A DNA stretch of 64,000 nucleotides from Candidatus Omnitrophota bacterium (GTDB lineage Bacteria; Omnitrophota; Gorgyraeia; Zapsychrales; JANLHA01): positions 1,690,662 through 1,754,661 of the forward strand of contig OY759724.1 in the NCBI GenBank assembly GCA_963662715.1, written 5' to 3'. The notes below the pieces were generated by a model that searched no databases, was not told the DNA's origin, and was given only the letters and a program-made list of their open reading frames with translations. Below, one piece after another: positions 23,216-30,613 of the stretch (position 1 is its first letter; each line of letters starts with the position of its first letter). Both the position numbers and the translations under genes were made by a program.

Positions 23216-26200
23216 ATGATCGTTTTTTTTATCGGAACAATATGTATTTCCGCCGGGTTGGGCACGATTGCCTGGCTTATGTGGAAGGAAAAAAGGATAG
23301 AAGACTCTATCCGCAAGAAAAACGCCCCGGTCTATAATCAGCCTGTCACAACCTCGGAGCTTTTGGACCGGATAGGTTTGCGCCGTGAGCCGCTACCGTC
23401 CCCGAATTCCCCCAAGGCTTCCCCGGGAGAAGAGTCGCTGGACGTTTTTTCCGCTTTAGATGATACGAATAAAGAAGATATCAACAAGGCTCTGGAACTT
23501 TCAATCCAACATGATGATTTAACGAAAGAACACCGCCATATGCAGGAGCATCATGAGAGGCTGCAGGCGTTGATTGTTGATAAGAAACGTATTTTAAAGA
23601 ACACGCGCAGAGCTCTGCGCAGCGAACGCCGGTATATTCAGGAGTTTGACCATATGCGGGACCGTTTGAATCATAAGATCGAAACAGCGAAGGAAGAGCG
23701 CCGGATGATTCAAAATAATCTTAAAGAAAAACAGGCTTCAGGCCGGGCTTTTCTGACGCGTGTCAATAATTTGGAACAAAGAATTAAAGAGCTGGAGACC
23801 TCTTTCCGGGAAAAGGAGCTGGCCATCAAGGATAGTATGATAACAGTCCAGAAAGACCAGAAGCGGGCTGCTGAAATAAAAGAGAAGATACAGGAAAGAG
23901 AAAAGACCGTTCAGGAAAAAAGCGATAAATTGCTGGATTTGATCGGCCGGATAAAAAAGAGAGGCGATACGGCCATGGAATATGTCCGGCAGCAGATCGG
24001 TATTGATATCCGGATATGGGAGGAAGAACTCTTGGCGCCGCCGGTCGTCGAAATTCCTGAGCCGGAAGAGAAAATGGTCCCGGCCGGGGAAGCTGCCGGT
24101 GAAGGCCTGGAAGCCGAACAACCTCTTGAAGAGGGCGTTGAGGCGGCCGCTCAGGAAGCCGTCCCCGTTGCCGGGGAGGCCCAGCCTGTGCCAGAAGAAC
24201 GGGGAGGGGATGCTGTCCTGGCTGATGTCCGGAACATCGGGATTATCGCTCATATCGATGCCGGTAAAACGACGACCACGGAAAGAGTCCTTTATTATAC
24301 CGGGGTCATTCATAAAATGGGGACGGTCGATCAGGGTAATGCGACAATGGACTGGATGGCCCAGGAGCAGGAACGGGGGATTACGATCACATCGGCCAAT
24401 ACCACATGTTTTTGGAAAGGCAAGAAAGTGAACATCATCGACACTCCCGGACACGTTGATTTTACGGTTGAGGTAGAGCGTTCCCTGAAGGTTCTTGACG
24501 GGGCGGTTGTTGTGCTGTGCGCCACAAGCGGCGTGCAGTCTCAGACAGAGACGGTATGGCGGCAGGCCGACCGGTATCATGTCCCGAGGATATTTTTTAT
24601 TAATAAAATTGACCGTATGGGTGCGGACTTTTTCCGGGTGCTTGAACAGATTGAAGACCGTATCGGAGCTAATGTGGCGGCCGTCCAGATCCCTGACGGC
24701 ACGGAAGACCAGTTTAAAGGCATTGTGGATGTGATCCATCAGAAGTATATCCATTACCTTGATGACGAAGGAATGAAGTTCGAGGAACAGGACATCCCGG
24801 AACCCCTGAAAGCGAAAAGCCAGGAGGTGCGCAAGATCCTGTTGGAAAGATTGTCCACGTGTGATGACGATATCATGGAAAAAATGCTGGCAGAACAGGA
24901 AATCTCCGCAGAAGACATTGTCCCTGCGATCCGGCGCGCTGTTGTTAAAAACGCCTTTTTCCCCGCTTTGGTCGGAACAGCCCTGCGCAACCGCGGGGTG
25001 CAGAAAGTCCTCGATGCCATTGTGGATTACCTGCCTTCGCCGTTGGAGGTTCCTCCGGTGTCCGGGACACGGCCCAGGACAGAGGAAACCCTTGAACGGC
25101 ATCCTTCGGTCGCGGAACCTCTTAGCGCGTTGGTTTTTAAGATTGCCTCCGATCCTTATGTCGGGAAGTTGTTCTATACCCGGATTTATTCCGGAATCAT
25201 TGAATCCGGAGGCACGGTTTACAACTCATCCTCAGGCAAGCGGGAGCGCGTTGCGAAGATCGTTGTGATGCATGCCAATAAGCAGGAAATTGTCCCGCGC
25301 GCCGGTGCCGGGGAGATCGTCGCTTTAGTCGGCCTTAAGACAACGAAATCCGGTGATACGCTGTGCGCTGAGAACCAACCCATCCTCTTGGAAAGTATTG
25401 AATCTCCGGAGCCGGTTATCTCAATGGCCATTGAACCGCAAACCAAGGCGGACCAGGATAAGATGGGGCTTATTTTAAGGAAATTCCTCGATGAAGACCC
25501 GTCATTGAGGATGTCCTATGATCATGAGACCGGCCAGACACTCCTGTCCGGGATGGGGGAACTGCATTTGGAGATTATTATCGACCGTATGAAACGGGAA
25601 CATAACCTAGAGACGAATATCGGACGTCCGCAGGTCGCTTACCGGGAGACGATTAAAGAGAAAGTGGAGAAAATCGAGGGCAAATTTATTTCCCAGACAG
25701 GCGGTCGCGGGCAATACGGGCATTGTGTTATTGAAATGGAACCCAGTGAAAAACCGGGAGACGGAATTAAATTTATCGATAAAATCAAAGGGGGCGTCAT
25801 CCCGCGCGAATATATCCCTTCCGTTGAGAAAGGCATCAATGCCGGTTCGGAAAGCGGTATTCTGGCCGGGTATCCGGTCACGGACTTTACTGTGACTCTC
25901 GTTGACGGGTCTTTTCATGAGGTTGATTCGAGTGACATTGCTTTTCAGCTCGCGGCCAAGGCCGCCCTTAAAGAAGGGCTGAGGCGCGGAAAATCCGTAT
26001 TCCTTGAACCGATCATGAAGCTGGAATGTGCCGTCCCGGAAGAATTCATGGGAGCGGTGATCGGGGATTTAAACAGCCGCCGGGCTAAAATTATTAATAT
26101 GGGCGTGCAGGGAAAGTTAAAGACGGCTTTGTGTGAAGTCCCCTTATCAGAAATGTTTAATTATGCCAATGCCCTGCGTTCTTTAACTCAAGGGCGGGCG

Positions 26201-26308
26201 TCTTTCTCCATGGAGCCCTGTTTTTATGCGGAAGTTCCCTATCATATTTCTGAAAAAATAAAAGCGGAGAGGGAAGAATTGATGAAGAAAAAGGAAGATG
26301 GGAAATAG
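23216..26308 (+). CDS. elongation factor G homolog with 335-aa N-terminal extension (TM helix, coiled coil, acidic Pro/Ala/Glu linker)
   Basis: Uninterrupted 1030-codon ORF; residues about 336-1030 are complete EF-G ([33 protein letters not shown] domain IV tip); N-terminus starts with hydrophobic helix then K/E/R-rich heptad-like sequence. Confidence 0.7.
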
Positions 26309-26397
26309 GCCGCCCGTTCAAAAGCGCTTAAAGCCGTCTTTTTTTTCTTCGGACGCCTTTGTCGCGGAAAAAAAATTTTCGCAATCCTATTTTTTAT

Positions 26398-26425
26398 TTG
26401 CATCCCATTCCCTTTGTGATATAAT
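26398..26425 (+). promoter_or_regulatory. candidate sigma70 promoter (TTGCAT, 16-nt spacer, TATAAT) with about 160-nt leader
   Basis: Consensus-like hexamers upstream of galT-like gene pair. Confidence 0.3.
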
Positions 26426-26588
26426 TCGTTAACTTTTCATAAAGGCATGACTTGCGAACCGACGGAATTAAGGAAGCGGGCACATTCTGGAACATGTTTC
26501 GTCGCTGAGAGAAACGGGTCGGTCGTTTGCTGAAAATATCAGCCCCCTGAGCAAATTTTATTAACTGGTATTTAAGGGTGTTTTATTT

Positions 26589-27608
26589 ATGCCAGAATTT
26601 CGTAAAGATCCCGTAATTGGCCGTTGGGTGATTATTGCGACGGAACGGGCCAGACGCCCGGGAACGATTATTGATCCTCAGCGCGTCGATAAAAAAGACT
26701 CTCAAGAGTGTCCTTTCTGCCATAACCAAGAGCCGGAGATATACACCGTCCCCAATAAAGACCCTCAAGCCTCCAGCCCCTGGAGTGTTAAGGTGACTCC
26801 CAGCGGGACTCCGTTATTAAAAATGTCGCCTCAGTTCAAACGCCGGGGCCACGGACTTTATGATGTCATTAATGATTACGGAGTGCATGAGGTCGTGATA
26901 GAAACTCCGGATCATATCGCGAATATGGCTGATTTGAGTGAAAAGCAGATCGCGTATGTGATGAATACCTATGTCTACCGTTTTAAGGAGTTAAGCCAGA
27001 ACAAAAATTTTCTTTATGTGATTGCCTATAAGAATTACGGCTGGGCCGCAGGCAGCCGTAATATCGGACATTCCCGTTCCCAAATTATCGCTTCCTCTGT
27101 GAATCCTTTGGCTGTGAAAGAACAAATGTCCCGGGCTAAAAAGTATTTTGATTATCATGACCGGTGTTTGTTCTGTGACCTGATCCGTCAGGAAAAAAAT
27201 GACAGGAAGCGGGTTGTGACCGAGTCGGAGCATTTTATCGCTATTACACCCTTTGCCCCCAGGTTTTCCTTTGAAATATGGATCCTTCCCAAAGAGCATC
27301 ATTGTGATTTTGTGCATGGCGTGGCGGGCAAGGAACTCGATTTAGCCAGAATTCTCAAAGATACGTTAACGCGGTTGAAAATCGGGCTGGCGGATCCGTC
27401 CTACAATTATGTTATTCAAACGGCGCCGTTCCGCAGTCAGGAGCGGGGGGCCCGCTGGCCGACCATTGAAGAGGATTATCATTGGCATATTGAAGTTATG
27501 CCCCGTTTAACCCGGGTGGCCGGATTTGAGAAAGGCTCCGGATTTTATATTTGTTCTATCCCCCCCGAACACACGGCGGAATTTTTAAGGGAGGTAGAGT
27601 TGTCATGA
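26589..27608 (+). CDS. GalT-like hexose-1-phosphate uridylyltransferase paralog 1 (HIT branch III), catalytic HxH degenerate (GHSRSQ)
   Basis: RKDPVIGRWVIIA N-terminus, CxxC zinc motif, but HPHGQ-equivalent reads HSRSQ. Confidence 0.65.
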   Translation: MPEFRKDPVIGRWVIIATERARRPGTIIDPQRVDKKDSQECPFCHNQEPEIYTVPNKDPQASSPWSVKVTPSGTPLLKMSPQFKRRGHGLYDVINDYGVHEVVIETPDHIANMADLSEKQIAYVMNTYVYRFKELSQNKNFLYVIAYKNYGWAAGSRNIGHSRSQIIASSVNPLAVKEQMSRAKKYFDYHDRCLFCDLIRQEKNDRKRVVTESEHFIAITPFAPRFSFEIWILPKEHHCDFVHGVAGKELDLARILKDTLTRLKIGLADPSYNYVIQTAPFRSQERGARWPTIEEDYHWHIEVMPRLTRVAGFEKGSGFYICSIPPEHTAEFLREVELS

Positions 27609-28612
27609 GTGAATTACGCCGTGATCCTATTATCGGCCGGTGGGCGATCGTTGCGGATAAAGAAGAATCCTGGGGACCGGATAATTACGATAAGGAAGTT
27701 CACGAACGTAAACATAAGGCCATCTGTCAGTTTTGTCCCGGCCGGGAGAAACAAACACCTCCGGAAGTTGACGCCATCCGGCCGCAGGGATCGGCTCCGA
27801 ATAAACCGGATTGGATAGCGCGGGCCGTCTCCAATAAATTTCCTGCTTTGCGTATTGAAGGTAATTTGGACAAACGTGCGGACGGTATTTATGATGTGTC
27901 TAACGGTGTGGGGGCGCATGAAGTTCTTATTGAAACGCCGGATCATGACCGGGATTTGGCGGATTTGTCCGTCGATGAGATTGTGAATGTTATCCGTCTG
28001 GCCCAAAGCCGGTCTATAAGTCTTGCCAAAGACCGGAGATTCAAGTATATTATGCTCTTCAAGAATTACGGGCAGTCCGCAGGAACGTCCATTGAGCATG
28101 CCCACAGTCAAATTATTGCTTTGCCCCTGGTGCCCCGTTATGTCCTGGAGGAGCTGGAAGGTTCTTTGAACTATTTTAAATTCCGGGGTCGCTGCATCTA
28201 TTGTGATATTATTGCCCAGGAACAGCAGGAGCAGGAAAGAATCATTTTGGATAACGAGGCGTTTATTTCTTTCTGTCCCTATGTCCCGAGATATCCTTTC
28301 GAGTGCTGGATCCTGCCGAAAGAACATTCCTCGGATTTTTGCTATCTGTCGGATCATGACCGCCATCAACTGGCGTTGACCTTGCAGGACGTGTTAAAGC
28401 GGATAAAAACGACTTTAAAAGATCCGTCTTATAATTTTTATTTGCATGTTCCCCCGGTCAATTACAAGGAGTCACAGAGTTACCACTGGCATATTGAAAT
28501 TGTTCCGCAGTTAAGCCGGGTCGCAGGTTTTGAATGGGGGACGGGGTTTTATATCGTCCGTACGGAACCCGGGGTCGCGGCTGAAACACTACGCAATTAT
28601 TCTCCGGAATAG
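27606..28612 (+). CDS. GalT-like hexose-1-phosphate uridylyltransferase paralog 2, catalytic motif intact (HAHSQ)
   Basis: ATGA overlap with paralog 1; RRDPIIGRWAIVA, CQFC, EHAHSQIIA. Confidence 0.65.
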
Positions 28613-28656: not shown

Positions 28657-29673
<1,017 letters not shown>

Positions 29674-29863: not shown

Positions 29864-30205
29864 ATGTTATTCGAGGAAATGGACGTTATTATGGGAACCC
29901 CGGAACATTTTGAAAATGAAAACAGGCGGTTAAAGCAGCTGGTGGCGGATTTAAAGGAGGAAATTGAAAGACAGCAAGAGGACCTAGAAAAAGTTGACCG
30001 GTTAAAGGGGGAGTTTGTCGACATGGCGGCTCACGATTTGCGAACGCCGGTCACGGTTATCAAGGAAAGTCTGGCTCAACTGCAGGACAGATTGTTCGGC
30101 GATTTGAACCCGGGGCAGGAGCATTTGCTTGAACTGGCTTTGCTGAATACCGAAAGGCTTGCGGATTGTATCAATCAATATATCTCATCGGCAAAGGAAA
30201 GATGA
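29864..30205 (+). CDS. stand-alone HisKA (dimerisation/phospho-acceptor) domain protein, no HATPase_c
   Basis: H-box MAAHDLRTP; 113 aa, no TM, no ATP-binding domain. Confidence 0.55.
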   Translation: MLFEEMDVIMGTPEHFENENRRLKQLVADLKEEIERQQEDLEKVDRLKGEFVDMAAHDLRTPVTVIKESLAQLQDRLFGDLNPGQEHLLELALLNTERLADCINQYISSAKER

Positions 30206-30250
30206 ACGGGTCTTGTTGGGGAGGGAGAAAACAAAAAGGGGGAAAGGAAA

Positions 30251-30613
30251 ATGGCACATAAACTATTGCTGATTGATGATGAGTCTGATATATTAAAAAT
30301 TCTTAAACTGCGATTGGAAGCCAATGATTATGCTGTCATCACGGCGGAGGACGGGGAGGCCGGGATGCAGGCTCTGCAGGCTGAGCGCCCGGACCTGGTC
30401 GTTTTGGATGTGATGATGCCCAGGATGGACGGATTTACGTTTGTCTCTGAACTCAAAAAGATGCAGGAGTTCCGGCATATTCCCGTCATCATGTTGACGG
30501 CAAAAGAAATGATGGCTGATTTGTTGCGTCTGGAAGGGGTCAGCGATTACATCATTAAACCGTTTCAGGCGGAGCAGGTCTTAGCGGCGATTAAGAAAAA
30601 TTTGCCGGAATAA
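30251..30613 (+). CDS. single-domain response regulator (CheY-like receiver)
   Basis: LLIDDE ... VLDVMMP ... K-P receiver motifs. Confidence 0.75.
   Translation: MAHKLLLIDDESDILKILKLRLEANDYAVITAEDGEAGMQALQAERPDLVVLDVMMPRMDGFTFVSELKKMQEFRHIPVIMLTAKEMMADLLRLEGVSDYIIKPFQAEQVLAAIKKNLPE

Follow-up and report, generated by a model that had tools for sequence, protein, structure and literature searches.

The GalT-fold gene pair and its surroundings

The locus lies in a 64-kb stretch of DNA from an Omnitrophota genome of ~3.36 Mb (referred to as the window) and consists of two tandem genes on the forward strand, copy 1 (339 aa) and copy 2 (335 aa), whose features are collected in Table 1. Homology places the start of copy 2 at the ATG at 27605 (MSELRRDP...) instead of the TTG at 27551 that is used in the list of open reading frames, and with this start the stop codon of copy 1 and the start codon of copy 2 overlap. 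The first-pass annotation had described the genes as translationally coupled tandem paralogs; the tandem order and the overlap stand, and the overlap has the geometry that would be expected for translational coupling.

The same annotation had pointed to a 160-nt leader with a near-consensus promoter upstream of the pair. The promoter-like site is present, ~164 nt upstream of the copy 1 ATG, but such sites are as frequent in shuffled sequence as they are in this region (4.1 +/- 2.2 expected, 6 found), and we do not regard it as a special feature. The leader had no match in Rfam at E <= 1, and its folding energy was like that of shuffled sequences (z = 0.44). Both elements are moreover specific to this genome, where an EF-G-like gene is inserted between fmt and copy 1; in its relatives fmt abuts copy 1, and the intergenic region that would hold the promoter and leader is therefore absent. 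On these grounds the idea of a riboswitch or structured leader was dropped. A search of the window for glgA, glgC, GH57, pgm, pgk and tpiA found none of these genes, and returned a weak NTP-transferase match at positions 641-1102; for a genome of this size, such an absence says little.

Table 1. Positions of the genes and motifs discussed in the text, numbered from the first nucleotide of the window.
Feature	Position	Strand	Remarks
Sigma-70-like promoter match	26397..26425	+	TTTGCA-17-TATAAT, TG upstream of -10; scores 10/12
5' leader, ~160 nt	26426..26588	+	no recognisable RNA element (Rfam and folding tests)
Copy 1	26589..27608	+	GalT-fold paralogue without nucleophile, proposed non-catalytic arm donor
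Copy 1 N-terminal arm, residues 1-24	26589..26660	+	MPEFRKDPVIGRWVIIATERARRP; R20 and R23, equivalent to E. coli R28/R31
Copy 1 S72-G73-T74	26802..26810	+	replaces nucleotide-pocket motif (N-K-F in copy 2 and single-copy homologues)
Copy 1 H161-S-R163-S-Q165 (NIGHSRSQ)	27069..27083	+	Zn-ligand His kept, nucleophile His replaced by Arg
Copy 1-specific insertion ERGARWPT, 8 residues (285-292)	27441..27464	+	conserved Trp290, Thr292
Copy 1 C-terminal AGFEKGSGFY	27519..27548	+	equivalent to E. coli K311-Q323 hexose-binding region
Shine-Dalgarno-like sequence for copy 2	27587..27595	+	AAGGGAGGT; within the 3' end of copy 1
ATGA overlap	27605..27608	+	copy 1 stop TGA 27606-27608, copy 2 start ATG 27605-27607
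Copy 2	27605..28612	+	GalT-fold paralogue with full same-chain catalytic residues, proposed catalytic subunit
Copy 2 E21-S-W-G24	27665..27676	+	Arg lost at both sites (E. coli R28, R31)
Copy 2 N77-K78-F79	27833..27841	+	nucleotide pocket, retained; N, K/R and F each 120/120
Copy 2 H165-A-H167-S-Q169 (SIEHAHSQ)	28097..28111	+	catalytic motif, retained
gap (glyceraldehyde-3-phosphate dehydrogenase)	28675..29673	+	conserved downstream neighbour; Pfam Gp_dh_N, Gp_dh_C

Aligned along their full length, copies 1 and 2 show 40% identity (E 1e-88), and both pass the Pfam gathering scores for GalP_UDP_transf (PF01087) and GalP_UDP_tr_C (PF02744) and the TIGR00209 cut-off of 102.1 bits (108.4 and 119.5 bits). 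Their scores of 118.4 and 140 bits against the NCBIfam equivalog for Leloir GalT (NF008724) fall far under its cut-off of 448, and galK, galE and galM were found neither in the window neighbourhood nor in 80 related loci. We therefore rejected a Leloir GalT function for the pair, although public annotation names both genes "galactose-1-phosphate uridylyltransferase" or "DUF4931". The best solved relative of both copies is At5g18200 of Arabidopsis (full length, E 1e-59 and 3e-62, about 34-40% identity); E. coli GalT is a much weaker match (E 1e-21 to 1e-24). In Foldseek comparisons, the predicted model of copy 1 matched GalT-fold structures with TM scores of 0.65-0.81, its six best matches all being At5g18200 chains (0.72-0.81). 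The class I GalT-like assignment thus holds for the fold, with the nearest characterised relative being an ADP-glucose phosphorylase and not a Leloir uridylyltransferase: At5g18200 was shown to have this activity (McCoy 2006, in the passage of PMC6329318 that cites it).

At5g18200 (PDB 1Z84, 1ZWJ, 2H39) has in common with both copies the two half-domain HIT fold, the G-x-E-x-x-x-P-E loop after the CxxC, the CxxC...H...H Zn site and a second Cys/His metal site. Both metal sites are intact in both copies. The Zn ligands (C41, C44, H109 and H161 in copy 1, all invariant among its orthologues; C41, C44, H114 and H165 in copy 2) align to C52, C55, H115 and H164 of E. coli GalT.

Residues lost and kept in each copy

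We compared 120 copy-1-type and 120 copy-2-type clusters, with the motif columns of homologues mapped by mafft --add --keeplength; the window proteins served as reference for reading the C-terminal columns and that of E. coli N77, in a set of 241 aligned sequences. Leloir GalT works by a ping-pong mechanism in which His166 of the E. coli enzyme, or His186 of the human one, is the nucleophile; the HxH motif begins with a His that binds Zn. The nucleophile column, which holds His166 in E. coli GalT and His186 in At5g18200, holds R163 in copy 1, and there is no other His in the loop. The alignment of this column to E. coli GalT and At5g18200 is unambiguous, and the catalytic His is lost, not shifted. 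The loss of the His-x-His motif from the first copy only (HSRSQ, versus HAHSQ in copy 2), which the first-pass annotation had noticed, was thereby confirmed. Copy 1 therefore belongs to the fold but would not be an enzyme of the family's mechanism. The change is not a chance one, because Arg163 is present in 117/120 copy-1-type clusters and the gene pair in 30 independent genomes; where orthologues depart from it they have His, Cys, Ser or Leu (His in two GTDB genomes and Cys in one).

Other parts of the catalytic pocket are also missing from copy 1. The motif that is N77-D78-F79 in E. coli is not only replaced but variable among copy 1 orthologues (S/N, G/I, T/N/K/A), the loop preceding the HSRSQ motif varies in sequence and length, and the Ser161 loop is lost, with Arg or Lys at that position in 74/120 clusters. 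Equivalents of N153, G159 and Q168 are retained. R20 and R23 of the N-terminal arm, which are invariant in the orthologue alignment, are each present in all 120 clusters, as are (120/120 each) the G, F, E, G, G and F of the C-terminal AGFEKGSGFY. Despite this invariance, the arm and the GFE loop have pLDDT < 50 in the monomer model of copy 1. The copy 1-specific insertion is likewise conserved (W290 in 107, T292 in 114 and the nearby D296 in 119 of the 120 clusters) and is found in none of the copy-2 clusters. With a mean column identity of 64% and 71 invariant positions that include both metal sites, and with a mean pairwise identity of 58.3%, compared with 56.1% for copy 2 in the same genomes, the alignments indicate that copy 1 is under purifying selection. 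A decaying, functionless duplicate or incipient pseudogene, which the loss of the nucleophile and nucleotide-pocket residues might have suggested, is effectively refuted by this conservation, by the intact open reading frame in more than 120 clusters and 30 genomes, and by the keeping of a lineage-specific insertion.

Copy 2 shows the opposite pattern. Its nucleophile His, in the same column as His186 of At5g18200, and its Gln are each present in 120/120 clusters, Ser or Thr at position 161 (S162 here) is retained in about 120/120, and its C-terminal GFEWGTGFY loop is conserved almost as well as that of copy 1. Arg is found at neither arm position in any of the 120 clusters, nor are both Arg found in any of 29 GTDB partner genes, and the catalytic paralogue thus appears itself to be incomplete at the sequence level. 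The position of E. coli R28 is taken by Asp or Glu in 69/120 close relatives, but in only 7/30 GTDB pairs.

Thirty true pairs in GTDB genomes showed the reciprocal pattern as well. In all 30 Omnitrophota loci whose flanks could be read on both sides, copy 1 precedes copy 2 on a shared strand, and three further loci have the pair as well, so the paired arrangement for which the annotation had proposed a search does recur in related genomes; judged from these loci, a live/dead pair is kept across the phylum Omnitrophota. The distance from the copy 1 stop to the copy 2 start is between -8 and +4 nt in 20/30 pairs. The two copies form separate clades with congruent internal branching, and their pairwise divergences are correlated (r = 0.85). 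The gap gene lies downstream of the pair in 29 loci, often followed by pgk and tpiA.

In other phyla there is a single gene, in most cases complete and often beside glgA. The full set of residues (RR-NK[FY]-[ST]-HxHxQ) is present in 41 of 50 single-gene loci (which include four Omnitrophota genes cut off by contig ends), as well as in E. coli GalT and At5g18200, and the two arm arginines are kept in 98% and 91% of aligned single-copy homologues. Two loci are exceptions: a Zixibacteria protein (L035/P0244) has kept HxH and lacks the arm arginines, with no partner gene within 4 kb, and a copy-1-like gene (L087) has no adjacent copy 2 on its contig.

Natural fusions were also found. In P0242 (599 aa), which is encoded at the syntenic locus upstream of gap-pgk-tpiA, a copy-1-like part is joined to a copy-2-like part. 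The former has kept the arm (ERAKRP) and the C-terminal half, whereas the N-terminal half has eroded together with its CxxC and HxR motifs, so that the copy 1 pocket would be dispensable in at least one lineage; the latter begins after the arm and is catalytically complete at the sequence level. The middle domain of P0242 had no coverage in the alignment built for it. A second fusion, P0316, was found on three contigs and joins an HPHSQ domain without arm arginines to an HPTWQ domain. A phosphoglucomutase gene lies near both the P0242 and the P0316 loci.

A proposed heterodimer and competing explanations

GalT-family proteins are normally homodimers, and in human GALT strand beta4 of one subunit is paired with beta1-beta2 from its partner (PMC5081055). 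Arg48 (E. coli R28) and Arg57 are described there as coming "from the opposite chain" beside Gln188, and the C-terminal hexose-binding residues K334-Q346 are on the other chain than Gln188 and Asn173 (PMC5081055). A second paper (PMC11816840) says nothing about the arm arginines. Since the human arm reaches the active site of the other subunit, a 1:1 heterodimer of copies with these reciprocal losses would have one complete and one dead site. We consider it probable that copies 1 and 2 are the subunits of a nucleotidyltransferase or phosphorylase of the GalT fold that is an obligate heterodimer and has a single working active site.

Each site of such a dimer would take its nucleophile His, Zn-site His, Gln and nucleotide pocket from one chain (in cis), and its N-terminal arm with two arginines and C-terminal hexose-binding loop from the other (in trans). 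After the duplication, copy 2 would have kept N77-K78-F79, S162, H165, H167 and Q169 and lost the arm arginines (E21, G24), and copy 1 would have kept R20, R23 and the GFExGxGFY loop and lost the nucleophile (R163), the pocket (S72-G73-T74) and the Ser161 loop. A dimer of copy 1 with copy 2 would then have one complete site (copy 2 in cis, copy 1 in trans) and one dead site, and in either homodimer something essential would be missing. The ATGA overlap would favour equimolar co-synthesis of the two subunits. The assignment of cis and trans residues in the copies follows the residue pattern itself and what PMC5081055 describes for human GALT, and we infer from these a physical complex in which R20 and R23 would act in trans. 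The obligate heterodimer had been suggested in the first-pass annotation, and is strengthened by the reciprocal loss of cis and arm residues and by the natural fusion of the two genes.

The most likely reaction of this heterodimer would be a ping-pong nucleotidyl transfer with a covalent NMP-His167, acting on an NDP-glucose/glucose-1-phosphate pair. ADP-glucose + Pi <-> ADP + Glc-1-P, as catalysed by At5g18200, is the leading candidate, with a likely role at the junction of glycogen metabolism and glycolysis. We infer both the substrate and the direction of flux, the substrate from homology (~34% identity to At5g18200) and gene neighbourhood. Besides fmt, gap, pgk, tpiA and glgA, the recurrent neighbours identified by Pfam or sequence are priA, def, MGDG synthase, glgC, GH57, cysS and an aminotransferase; single-copy homologues adjoin glgA in 10 loci, with GH57 genes or glgC near others.

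Several observations do not fit easily with an obligate heterodimer. The GFEWGTGFY loop of copy 2 would serve only the dead site and is conserved nonetheless, and the two exceptional loci each have one kind of gene with no neighbour of the other kind. In addition, Arg163 is so nearly invariant that it would seem to have a positive role and not to mark a simple loss; the basic heterodimer model leaves this unexplained.

A heterodimer in which the dead site has been repurposed would account for some of these points, and we regard it as possible, though a good deal less likely than a dead site without function. In that case copy 1 would have a regulatory function in addition to its part as a structural donor, with its pocket binding a phosphorylated effector or latching the subunits together and so regulating the live site. 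It is specifically Arg that occupies the nucleophile position, often together with a basic residue at the Ser161 position, and the N153, G159 and Q168 equivalents, the copy 1 insertion and the hexose loop of copy 2 that faces this site in trans are all conserved; the Asp or Glu at the R28 position of copy 2 would also permit a salt bridge to Arg163 in the close relatives. That acidic residue is however rare among the GTDB pairs, the His and Cys variants of copy 1 do exist, the N-terminal half of the copy 1 part of P0242 has eroded, pocket included, and no ligand can be named from sequence. Arg163, the basic loop residue, the Trp insertion and the facing hexose loop together mean that the dead site could be an allosteric sensor for a phosphorylated metabolite (Glc-1-P, Glc-6-P, triose phosphate or Pi), a suggestion that we make just as tentatively. 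If it were true, the heterodimer would act as a regulated valve linking glycogen/ADP-glucose to the gap-pgk-tpiA module of glycolysis, and the single-copy relatives that lie beside or are fused to GlgA would mark a widespread, uncharacterised and GlgC-free route for making or recycling ADP-glucose.

We think it improbable that the genes encode two separate homodimers, with copy 2 self-sufficient and copy 1 an independent binding or sensor protein, or an enzyme of other chemistry, that merely shares the operon. In both proteins the fold and the metal sites are complete, homodimers are usual in this family (PMC5081055), and the exceptional Zixibacteria and L087 loci show each kind of gene standing without the other beside it. 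This explanation nevertheless accounts neither for the loss of arm arginines from the catalytic copy, when nearly all single-copy homologues and the E. coli, plant and human proteins keep them, nor for their retention in every cluster of the dead copy. Nor would it explain the fusion proteins P0242 and P0316, the geometry of the gene overlap, or why the copies co-occur so strictly and have diverged in a correlated way.

It is more doubtful still that copy 1 is catalytic by some other mechanism, for example a single-displacement transfer or hydrolysis in which Arg163 stabilises the transition state, possibly on a non-nucleotide phosphate ester or anhydride. Arg163, Ser164, Gln165, the Zn site and the arm arginines are strongly conserved, and copy 1 as a whole slightly more so than copy 2, as such an activity might require. 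We are not aware, however, of any enzyme in the HIT superfamily that can do without the nucleophilic His, and a nucleotide-binding motif that is gone and variable among orthologues, a loop of changing sequence and length before the catalytic motif, the replacement of Arg163 by other residues in some orthologues and the full erosion of the pocket in P0242 all argue against it.

Comparison with known systems

The proposed heterodimer departs from its relatives in where the residues lie. At5g18200 is the product of a single gene, in which each subunit has both R41/R44 and the catalytic His and so contributes to two equivalent sites, whereas here the arginine pair and the nucleophile are split between two paralogues; its ADP-glucose activity is, for the bacterial proteins, a candidate suggested by homology and neighbourhood. 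E. coli GalT (PDB 1HXP/1HXQ/1GUP) and human GALT (5IN3) have the same fold, with sites built across the dimer interface, and the R28/R31 arm and C-terminal hexose loop of Leloir GalT have clear equivalents in the copies, but the genomic setting differs: the neighbours here are fmt and gap-pgk-tpiA and, in other phyla, glgA, GH57 and glgC.

Heterodimers with a dead paralogue are already known as a kind. Firmicutes GlgC/GlgD and the small and large subunits of the plant enzyme are ADP-glucose pyrophosphorylases in which an inactive paralogous subunit modulates the active one. GlgC/GlgD resembles the present pair in having adjacent genes for a catalytic and a non-catalytic paralogue and in belonging to ADP-glucose and glycogen metabolism. 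It differs in its fold (nucleotidyltransferase plus left-handed beta-helix), its reaction (ATP + Glc-1-P -> ADP-Glc + PPi) and its active sites, which are not built at the interface in the manner of GalT.

In the prozyme systems of trypanosomatids, DHSc/DHSp (PMC3663545) and AdoMetDC/prozyme (PMC5201418), a dead paralogue is needed, or is proposed to be needed, by an impaired catalytic paralogue, an account that matches the reciprocal degeneration of copies 1 and 2. At the sequence level the present pair has a conserved inactive paralogue, strict co-occurrence and an incomplete catalytic paralogue, as prozymes do. Prozymes have unrelated folds and pathways and are found in eukaryotic parasites, whereas copies 1 and 2 are bacterial, their genes overlap in one operon and are fused in one lineage; prozymes are also biochemically proven, and the present case is drawn from sequence.

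The GalT-fold variant would be new: if the proposal is correct, it would be, in the literature searched and to our knowledge, the first obligate heterodimer with a dead paralogue in the HIT superfamily. It would also show, in an unusually clear natural case, how complementary losses can turn a symmetric homodimer with shared sites into an asymmetric heterodimer, with intermediate stages still extant (a copy 1 that still has His, a lineage with fused genes, and a fusion whose dead subunit has lost its useless half to erosion). Because the genes are publicly annotated as galactose-1-phosphate uridylyltransferase or DUF4931, a Leloir pathway would be wrongly assigned to Omnitrophota in metabolic reconstructions. 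The bacterial branch to which the pair belongs appears large and uncharacterised, with 1486 representative clusters at E < 1e-30, and includes GlgA::GalT-like fusions (P0312, 19 cluster members) and a GH57::GalT-like fusion (P0269). Together with the gene neighbourhoods, these fusions tie the branch to glycogen and ADP-glucose metabolism, a link that is directly testable.

A tandem GalT-fold pair with a lost nucleophile

The two overlapping GalT-like genes of the window, copy 1 (upstream) and copy 2 (downstream), meet in an ATGA in which the copy 1 TGA (27606-27608) overlaps the copy 2 ATG (27605-27607), with AAGGGAGGT placed 10 nt 5' of that ATG. The two products are 40% identical over their full length (E 1e-88), and each is recognised by the Pfam models for the N- and C-terminal GalT domains; a search for a third GalT-like homologue in the 64-kb window found none. 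The first-pass annotation had claimed a tandem, translationally coupled GalT-like pair in which the nucleophile His is replaced by Arg in the upstream copy only. The ORFs, their overlap and both Pfam domains bear out the pair, and the motifs read in the sequences, NIGHSRSQ in copy 1 and SIEHAHSQ in copy 2, confirm the replacement. Alignment with E. coli GalT and the Arabidopsis ADP-glucose phosphorylase At5g18200, the check proposed there, placed copy 1 R163 exactly in the nucleophile column (E. coli H166, At H186) and H161 in the Zn-ligand column, with no alternative His near R163. Because R163 fills the nucleophile column and no other His lies close by, the nucleophile has been lost rather than shifted, and the reading in which the His has moved is ruled out.

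At5g18200 was the best solved match for both copies, over the full length (E 1e-59 and 3e-62), and matches to E. coli and human GalT were much weaker (E 1e-14 to 1e-24). According to PMC6329318, which cites McCoy 2006, At5g18200 acts as an ADP-glucose phosphorylase, not as a GalT. Leloir GalT identity is ruled out by the equivalog model for that enzyme, on which the copies scored 118 and 140 bits, both below the cut-off of 448. The AlphaFold model of copy 1 (mean pLDDT 73.6, pTM 0.78) matched At5g18200 chains first (TM 0.72-0.81) and other GalT structures next, and both Cys/His metal sites are invariant across copy 1 orthologues. Sequence and motif place copy 2 in the At5g18200 branch of the GalT fold family; copy 1 shares the fold but not the catalytic feature by which the family is defined.

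Coordinates of the features discussed, in the window or on fetched related loci (L-numbers)
Feature	Location	Positions	Strand	Description
EF-G-like ORF	window	23216-26308	+	1030 aa; complete EF-G (GTP_EFTU, D2, III, IV, C) = residues 337-1014
Promoter match	window	26397-26425	+	TTTGCA-17-TATAAT with TG; ~164 nt 5' of copy 1 ATG
Copy 1 ORF	window	26589-27608	+	339 aa
Copy 2 ORF	window	27605-28612	+	335 aa counted from homologue-supported ATG
Coiled-coil / HisKA-like ORF	window	29864-30613	+	small
P0312 fusion gene	L089	2361-4805		814 aa
P0316 fusion gene	L090	6001-8910		969 aa
P0316 fusion gene	L091	5118-8027		969 aa
GalT-like gene	L035	3971-5023		Zixibacteria SM23_73_3
Copy-1-like gene	L087	1704-2708		right after fmt

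Distribution of the pair and reciprocal loss of conserved residues

One genome per GTDB species was scanned and 80 loci were fetched, of which 30 carried two GalT-like genes, four stopped at a contig edge and the remaining 46 had a single gene (in Acidobacteriota, Nitrospirota, Zixibacteria, WOR-3, Desulfobacterota, Binatia and others). The two-gene loci all came from Omnitrophota-type MAGs, some of which carry the record label 'uncultured Planctomycetes', and they show the paired arrangement that the first-pass annotation had suggested looking for, with the copy-1 type preceding the copy-2 type on a single strand and the copy 1 stop lying -8 to +4 nt from the copy 2 start in 20 of the 30. A search with copy 1 gave 120 clusters at at least 55% identity, assigned to Omnitrophica/Omnitrophota wherever named, and nearly all have H-x-R-S-Q. 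In a neighbour-joining tree the copy-1 types (33) and copy-2 types (31) were each monophyletic with congruent internal groupings, the deep nodes being too poorly resolved to decide strict sisterhood of the two clades. Divergence of the two copies was correlated over genome pairs (r = 0.85). That copy 1 is a decaying gene is ruled out by its conservation, which is slightly above that of copy 2 (mean identity 58.3% vs 56.1%). The live/dead pair is a real, conserved feature, ancient and phylum-wide in Omnitrophota.

We aligned 33 copy-1 types, 33 copy-2 types, 46 single-copy homologues from other phyla (singles), E. coli GalT and At5g18200, and sought columns that were conserved among the singles and lost from one copy only. 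Besides the nucleophile, the nucleotide-pocket motif is gone from copy 1 (N-K-F-P-A to S-[I/G]-x-P-x; S72-G73-T74 in the window, N77-D78-F79 in E. coli), and so is the Ser161 loop, which is one residue longer and has Arg, Lys or Asn in place of Ser. The only two strongly conserved residues lost from copy 2 are the arginines at E. coli R28 and R31 (At R41, R44), which lie in the N-terminal arm of the fold (R20 and R23 in copy 1) and are replaced by E21 and G24 in copy 2 of the window. This reciprocal pattern was seen in 30 of 30 true gene pairs, and the full residue set was present at 41 of 50 single-gene loci (the four contig-edge genes counted in), with which a second alignment agrees. At two loci (L013 and L023) the copy 1 His is still present, with its pocket and the copy 2 arginines already absent; the division of labour is therefore older than the His-to-Arg change. 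The single-copy genes of two Nitrospirota loci (L031 and L034) keep HxHxQ and have Asn77 changed to Ser, R31 to Lys/Thr and Ser161 to Val/Ile; they may represent a subfamily that acts on another substrate.

Residues at active-site columns in copy-1 and copy-2 clusters
Column	Copy-1 type	Copy-2 type
R28 equivalent	Arg 120/120	Arg 0/120
R31 equivalent	Arg 120/120	Arg 0/120
Nucleophile	Arg 117/120	His 120/120
Gln168 equivalent	109/120	120/120
Ser/Thr161 equivalent	lost	120/120
N, K/R, F pocket motif	lost	120/120 each

A probable heterodimer with one composite site

Human GALT is an obligate dimer in which both subunits build each active site; strands beta1-beta2 pair with beta4 across the two chains, and Gln188 has as neighbours Arg48 (the E. 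coli R28 equivalent) and Arg57 'from the opposite chain' (PMC5081055). The hexose-1-phosphate there meets K334-Q346 of one chain and Gln188 and Asn173 of the other, and UDP-glucose is contacted by E. coli R28, R31, G159 and S161 (PMC5081055). If this geometry applies, a copy 1:copy 2 dimer would have two unequal sites. One would be complete, with His167, the pocket and Ser162 supplied by copy 2 and R20/R23 and the C-terminal loop by copy 1, and the other would have lost both its cis residues (those on the nucleophile-bearing chain) and its trans residues (those given by the other chain). Two copy 2 chains together would leave both sites without the arginines, and two copy 1 chains would provide neither nucleophile nor nucleotide pocket. 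We consider a heterodimer with a single composite site probable, the trans placement of the copy 1 arm residues being drawn by analogy from a homologue. The copy 1 arm (residues 1-34) and GFE loop (309-319) are invariant in sequence and have the lowest confidence in the monomer model, which would lend the heterodimer weak additional support. By analogy, the pair resembles the GlgC/GlgD system. As a system it is like trypanosomatid deoxyhypusine synthase and AdoMetDC, which are dead-paralogue heterodimers (PMC3663545, PMC5201418). No description of such a pair, in either the HIT/GalT family or Omnitrophota, turned up in our literature search.

When 1.84 billion representatives were searched exhaustively and without a profile, 6280 matched at E <= 0.001 (1486 at E <= 1e-30), among them natural fusions. 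P0242 (599 aa), encoded in syntenic position 5' of gap-pgk-tpiA-secG in an NCBI genome, aligns end to end with copy 1 over residues 1-288, keeping the arm (MSELRKDPACRRWVIIAVERAKRP) and the C-terminal half, and is eroded in the N-terminal half of this part, without CxxC, H109 or HxR. A Ser/Lys-rich linker then leads to a match to copy 2 residues 35-330 (46% identity) that is without the arm and has NKF and HPHTQ. Scaffold aside, the dead part of P0242 keeps what the composite-site model requires it to donate. P0316, found on three contigs beside genes for phosphoglucomutase and a 451-aa sugar-1-P nucleotidyltransferase, has an HPHSQ domain without arm arginines followed by an HPTWQ domain without a nucleophile, and appears to be an independent case of live/dead pairing, fused into one protein with the domain order reversed. 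Other representatives have H replaced by Y, I, V, L, C or S, or are Arg-less HxH variants; degeneration of a partner may thus have happened repeatedly. A transcript of the euglenid Eutreptiella gymnastica (P0245, 871 aa) encodes a single chain with a tandem of GalT-like domains, both apparently complete (HAHSQ and HPHSQ), which looks like a covalently linked pseudo-homodimer.

Judged across the clusters, conservation of Arg163 is too strong for mere loss. The Ser161 position is R or K in 74 of 120 copy-1 clusters, copy 1 has a conserved 8-residue insertion containing Trp, and the hexose loop, which would point at the dead site, is retained in copy 2. For these reasons the dead site may have kept some binding capacity, or it may act as a latch. 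The copy 2 R28 position is Asp/Glu in 69 of 120 close relatives but in only 7 of 30 GTDB pairs. The dead-site pocket is dispensable in P0242, which counts against a universal role.

Two cases fit the heterodimer model poorly. The L035 gene and the representative P0244, which are sister to the copy-1 clade, keep H-x-H-x-Q, have the loop insertion and lack the arm arginines and the NKF motif; no partner for the L035 gene was found within +/- 4 kb, and the model leaves this type unexplained unless a partner lies elsewhere in the genome. The L087 gene keeps the arm arginines and has H-x-S at the motif, with no copy 2 on its 9.9-kb contig; the genes that follow it run the other way.

Gene neighbourhood, likely reaction and promoter region

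Among singles in other phyla, glgA (glycogen synthase) lies immediately 3' at 10 loci, two GH57 genes lie 5' at three loci, and one single gene sits beside glgC-glgA. P0312, whose cluster has 19 members from independent assemblies, Coprothermobacterota among them, is glycogen (starch) synthase GlgA fused to a complete GalT-like domain with RR and HPHSQ, and is Rosetta-stone evidence that this branch works with GlgA; a comparable GH57::GalT-like fusion is P0269 (875 aa). Together with the At5g18200 homology, these contexts and fusions suggest that the enzyme interconverts NDP-glucose and Glc-1-P in connection with glycogen. ADP-glucose + Pi <-> ADP + Glc-1-P would be the likeliest candidate reaction, with even chances that this specific substrate assignment is correct.

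The Omnitrophota context is priA-(def)-fmt-copy 1-copy 2-gap-(pgk-tpiA), with fmt directly 5' of copy 1 in relatives. In the window fmt and copy 1 are separated by an inserted EF-G-like gene, which creates a 280-nt intergenic region, and pgk and tpiA, which follow gap in many relatives, were not found in the 64 kb. The first-pass annotation had described a 160-nt leader with a near-consensus promoter; the promoter match is present, but such matches were not enriched relative to shuffled sequence, and the leader had no Rfam match and no special structure. Leader and promoter are taken to be an ordinary, genome-specific promoter region. The N-terminal extension of the EF-G-like protein (~330 aa) has a hydrophobic TM-like start, a long, charged coiled-coil-like stretch and a Glu/Ala/Pro-rich linker, and the protein may be a membrane-tethered EF-G paralogue. 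Downstream of the pair, gap is followed by the small coiled-coil / HisKA-like ORF and a response-regulator receiver gene.
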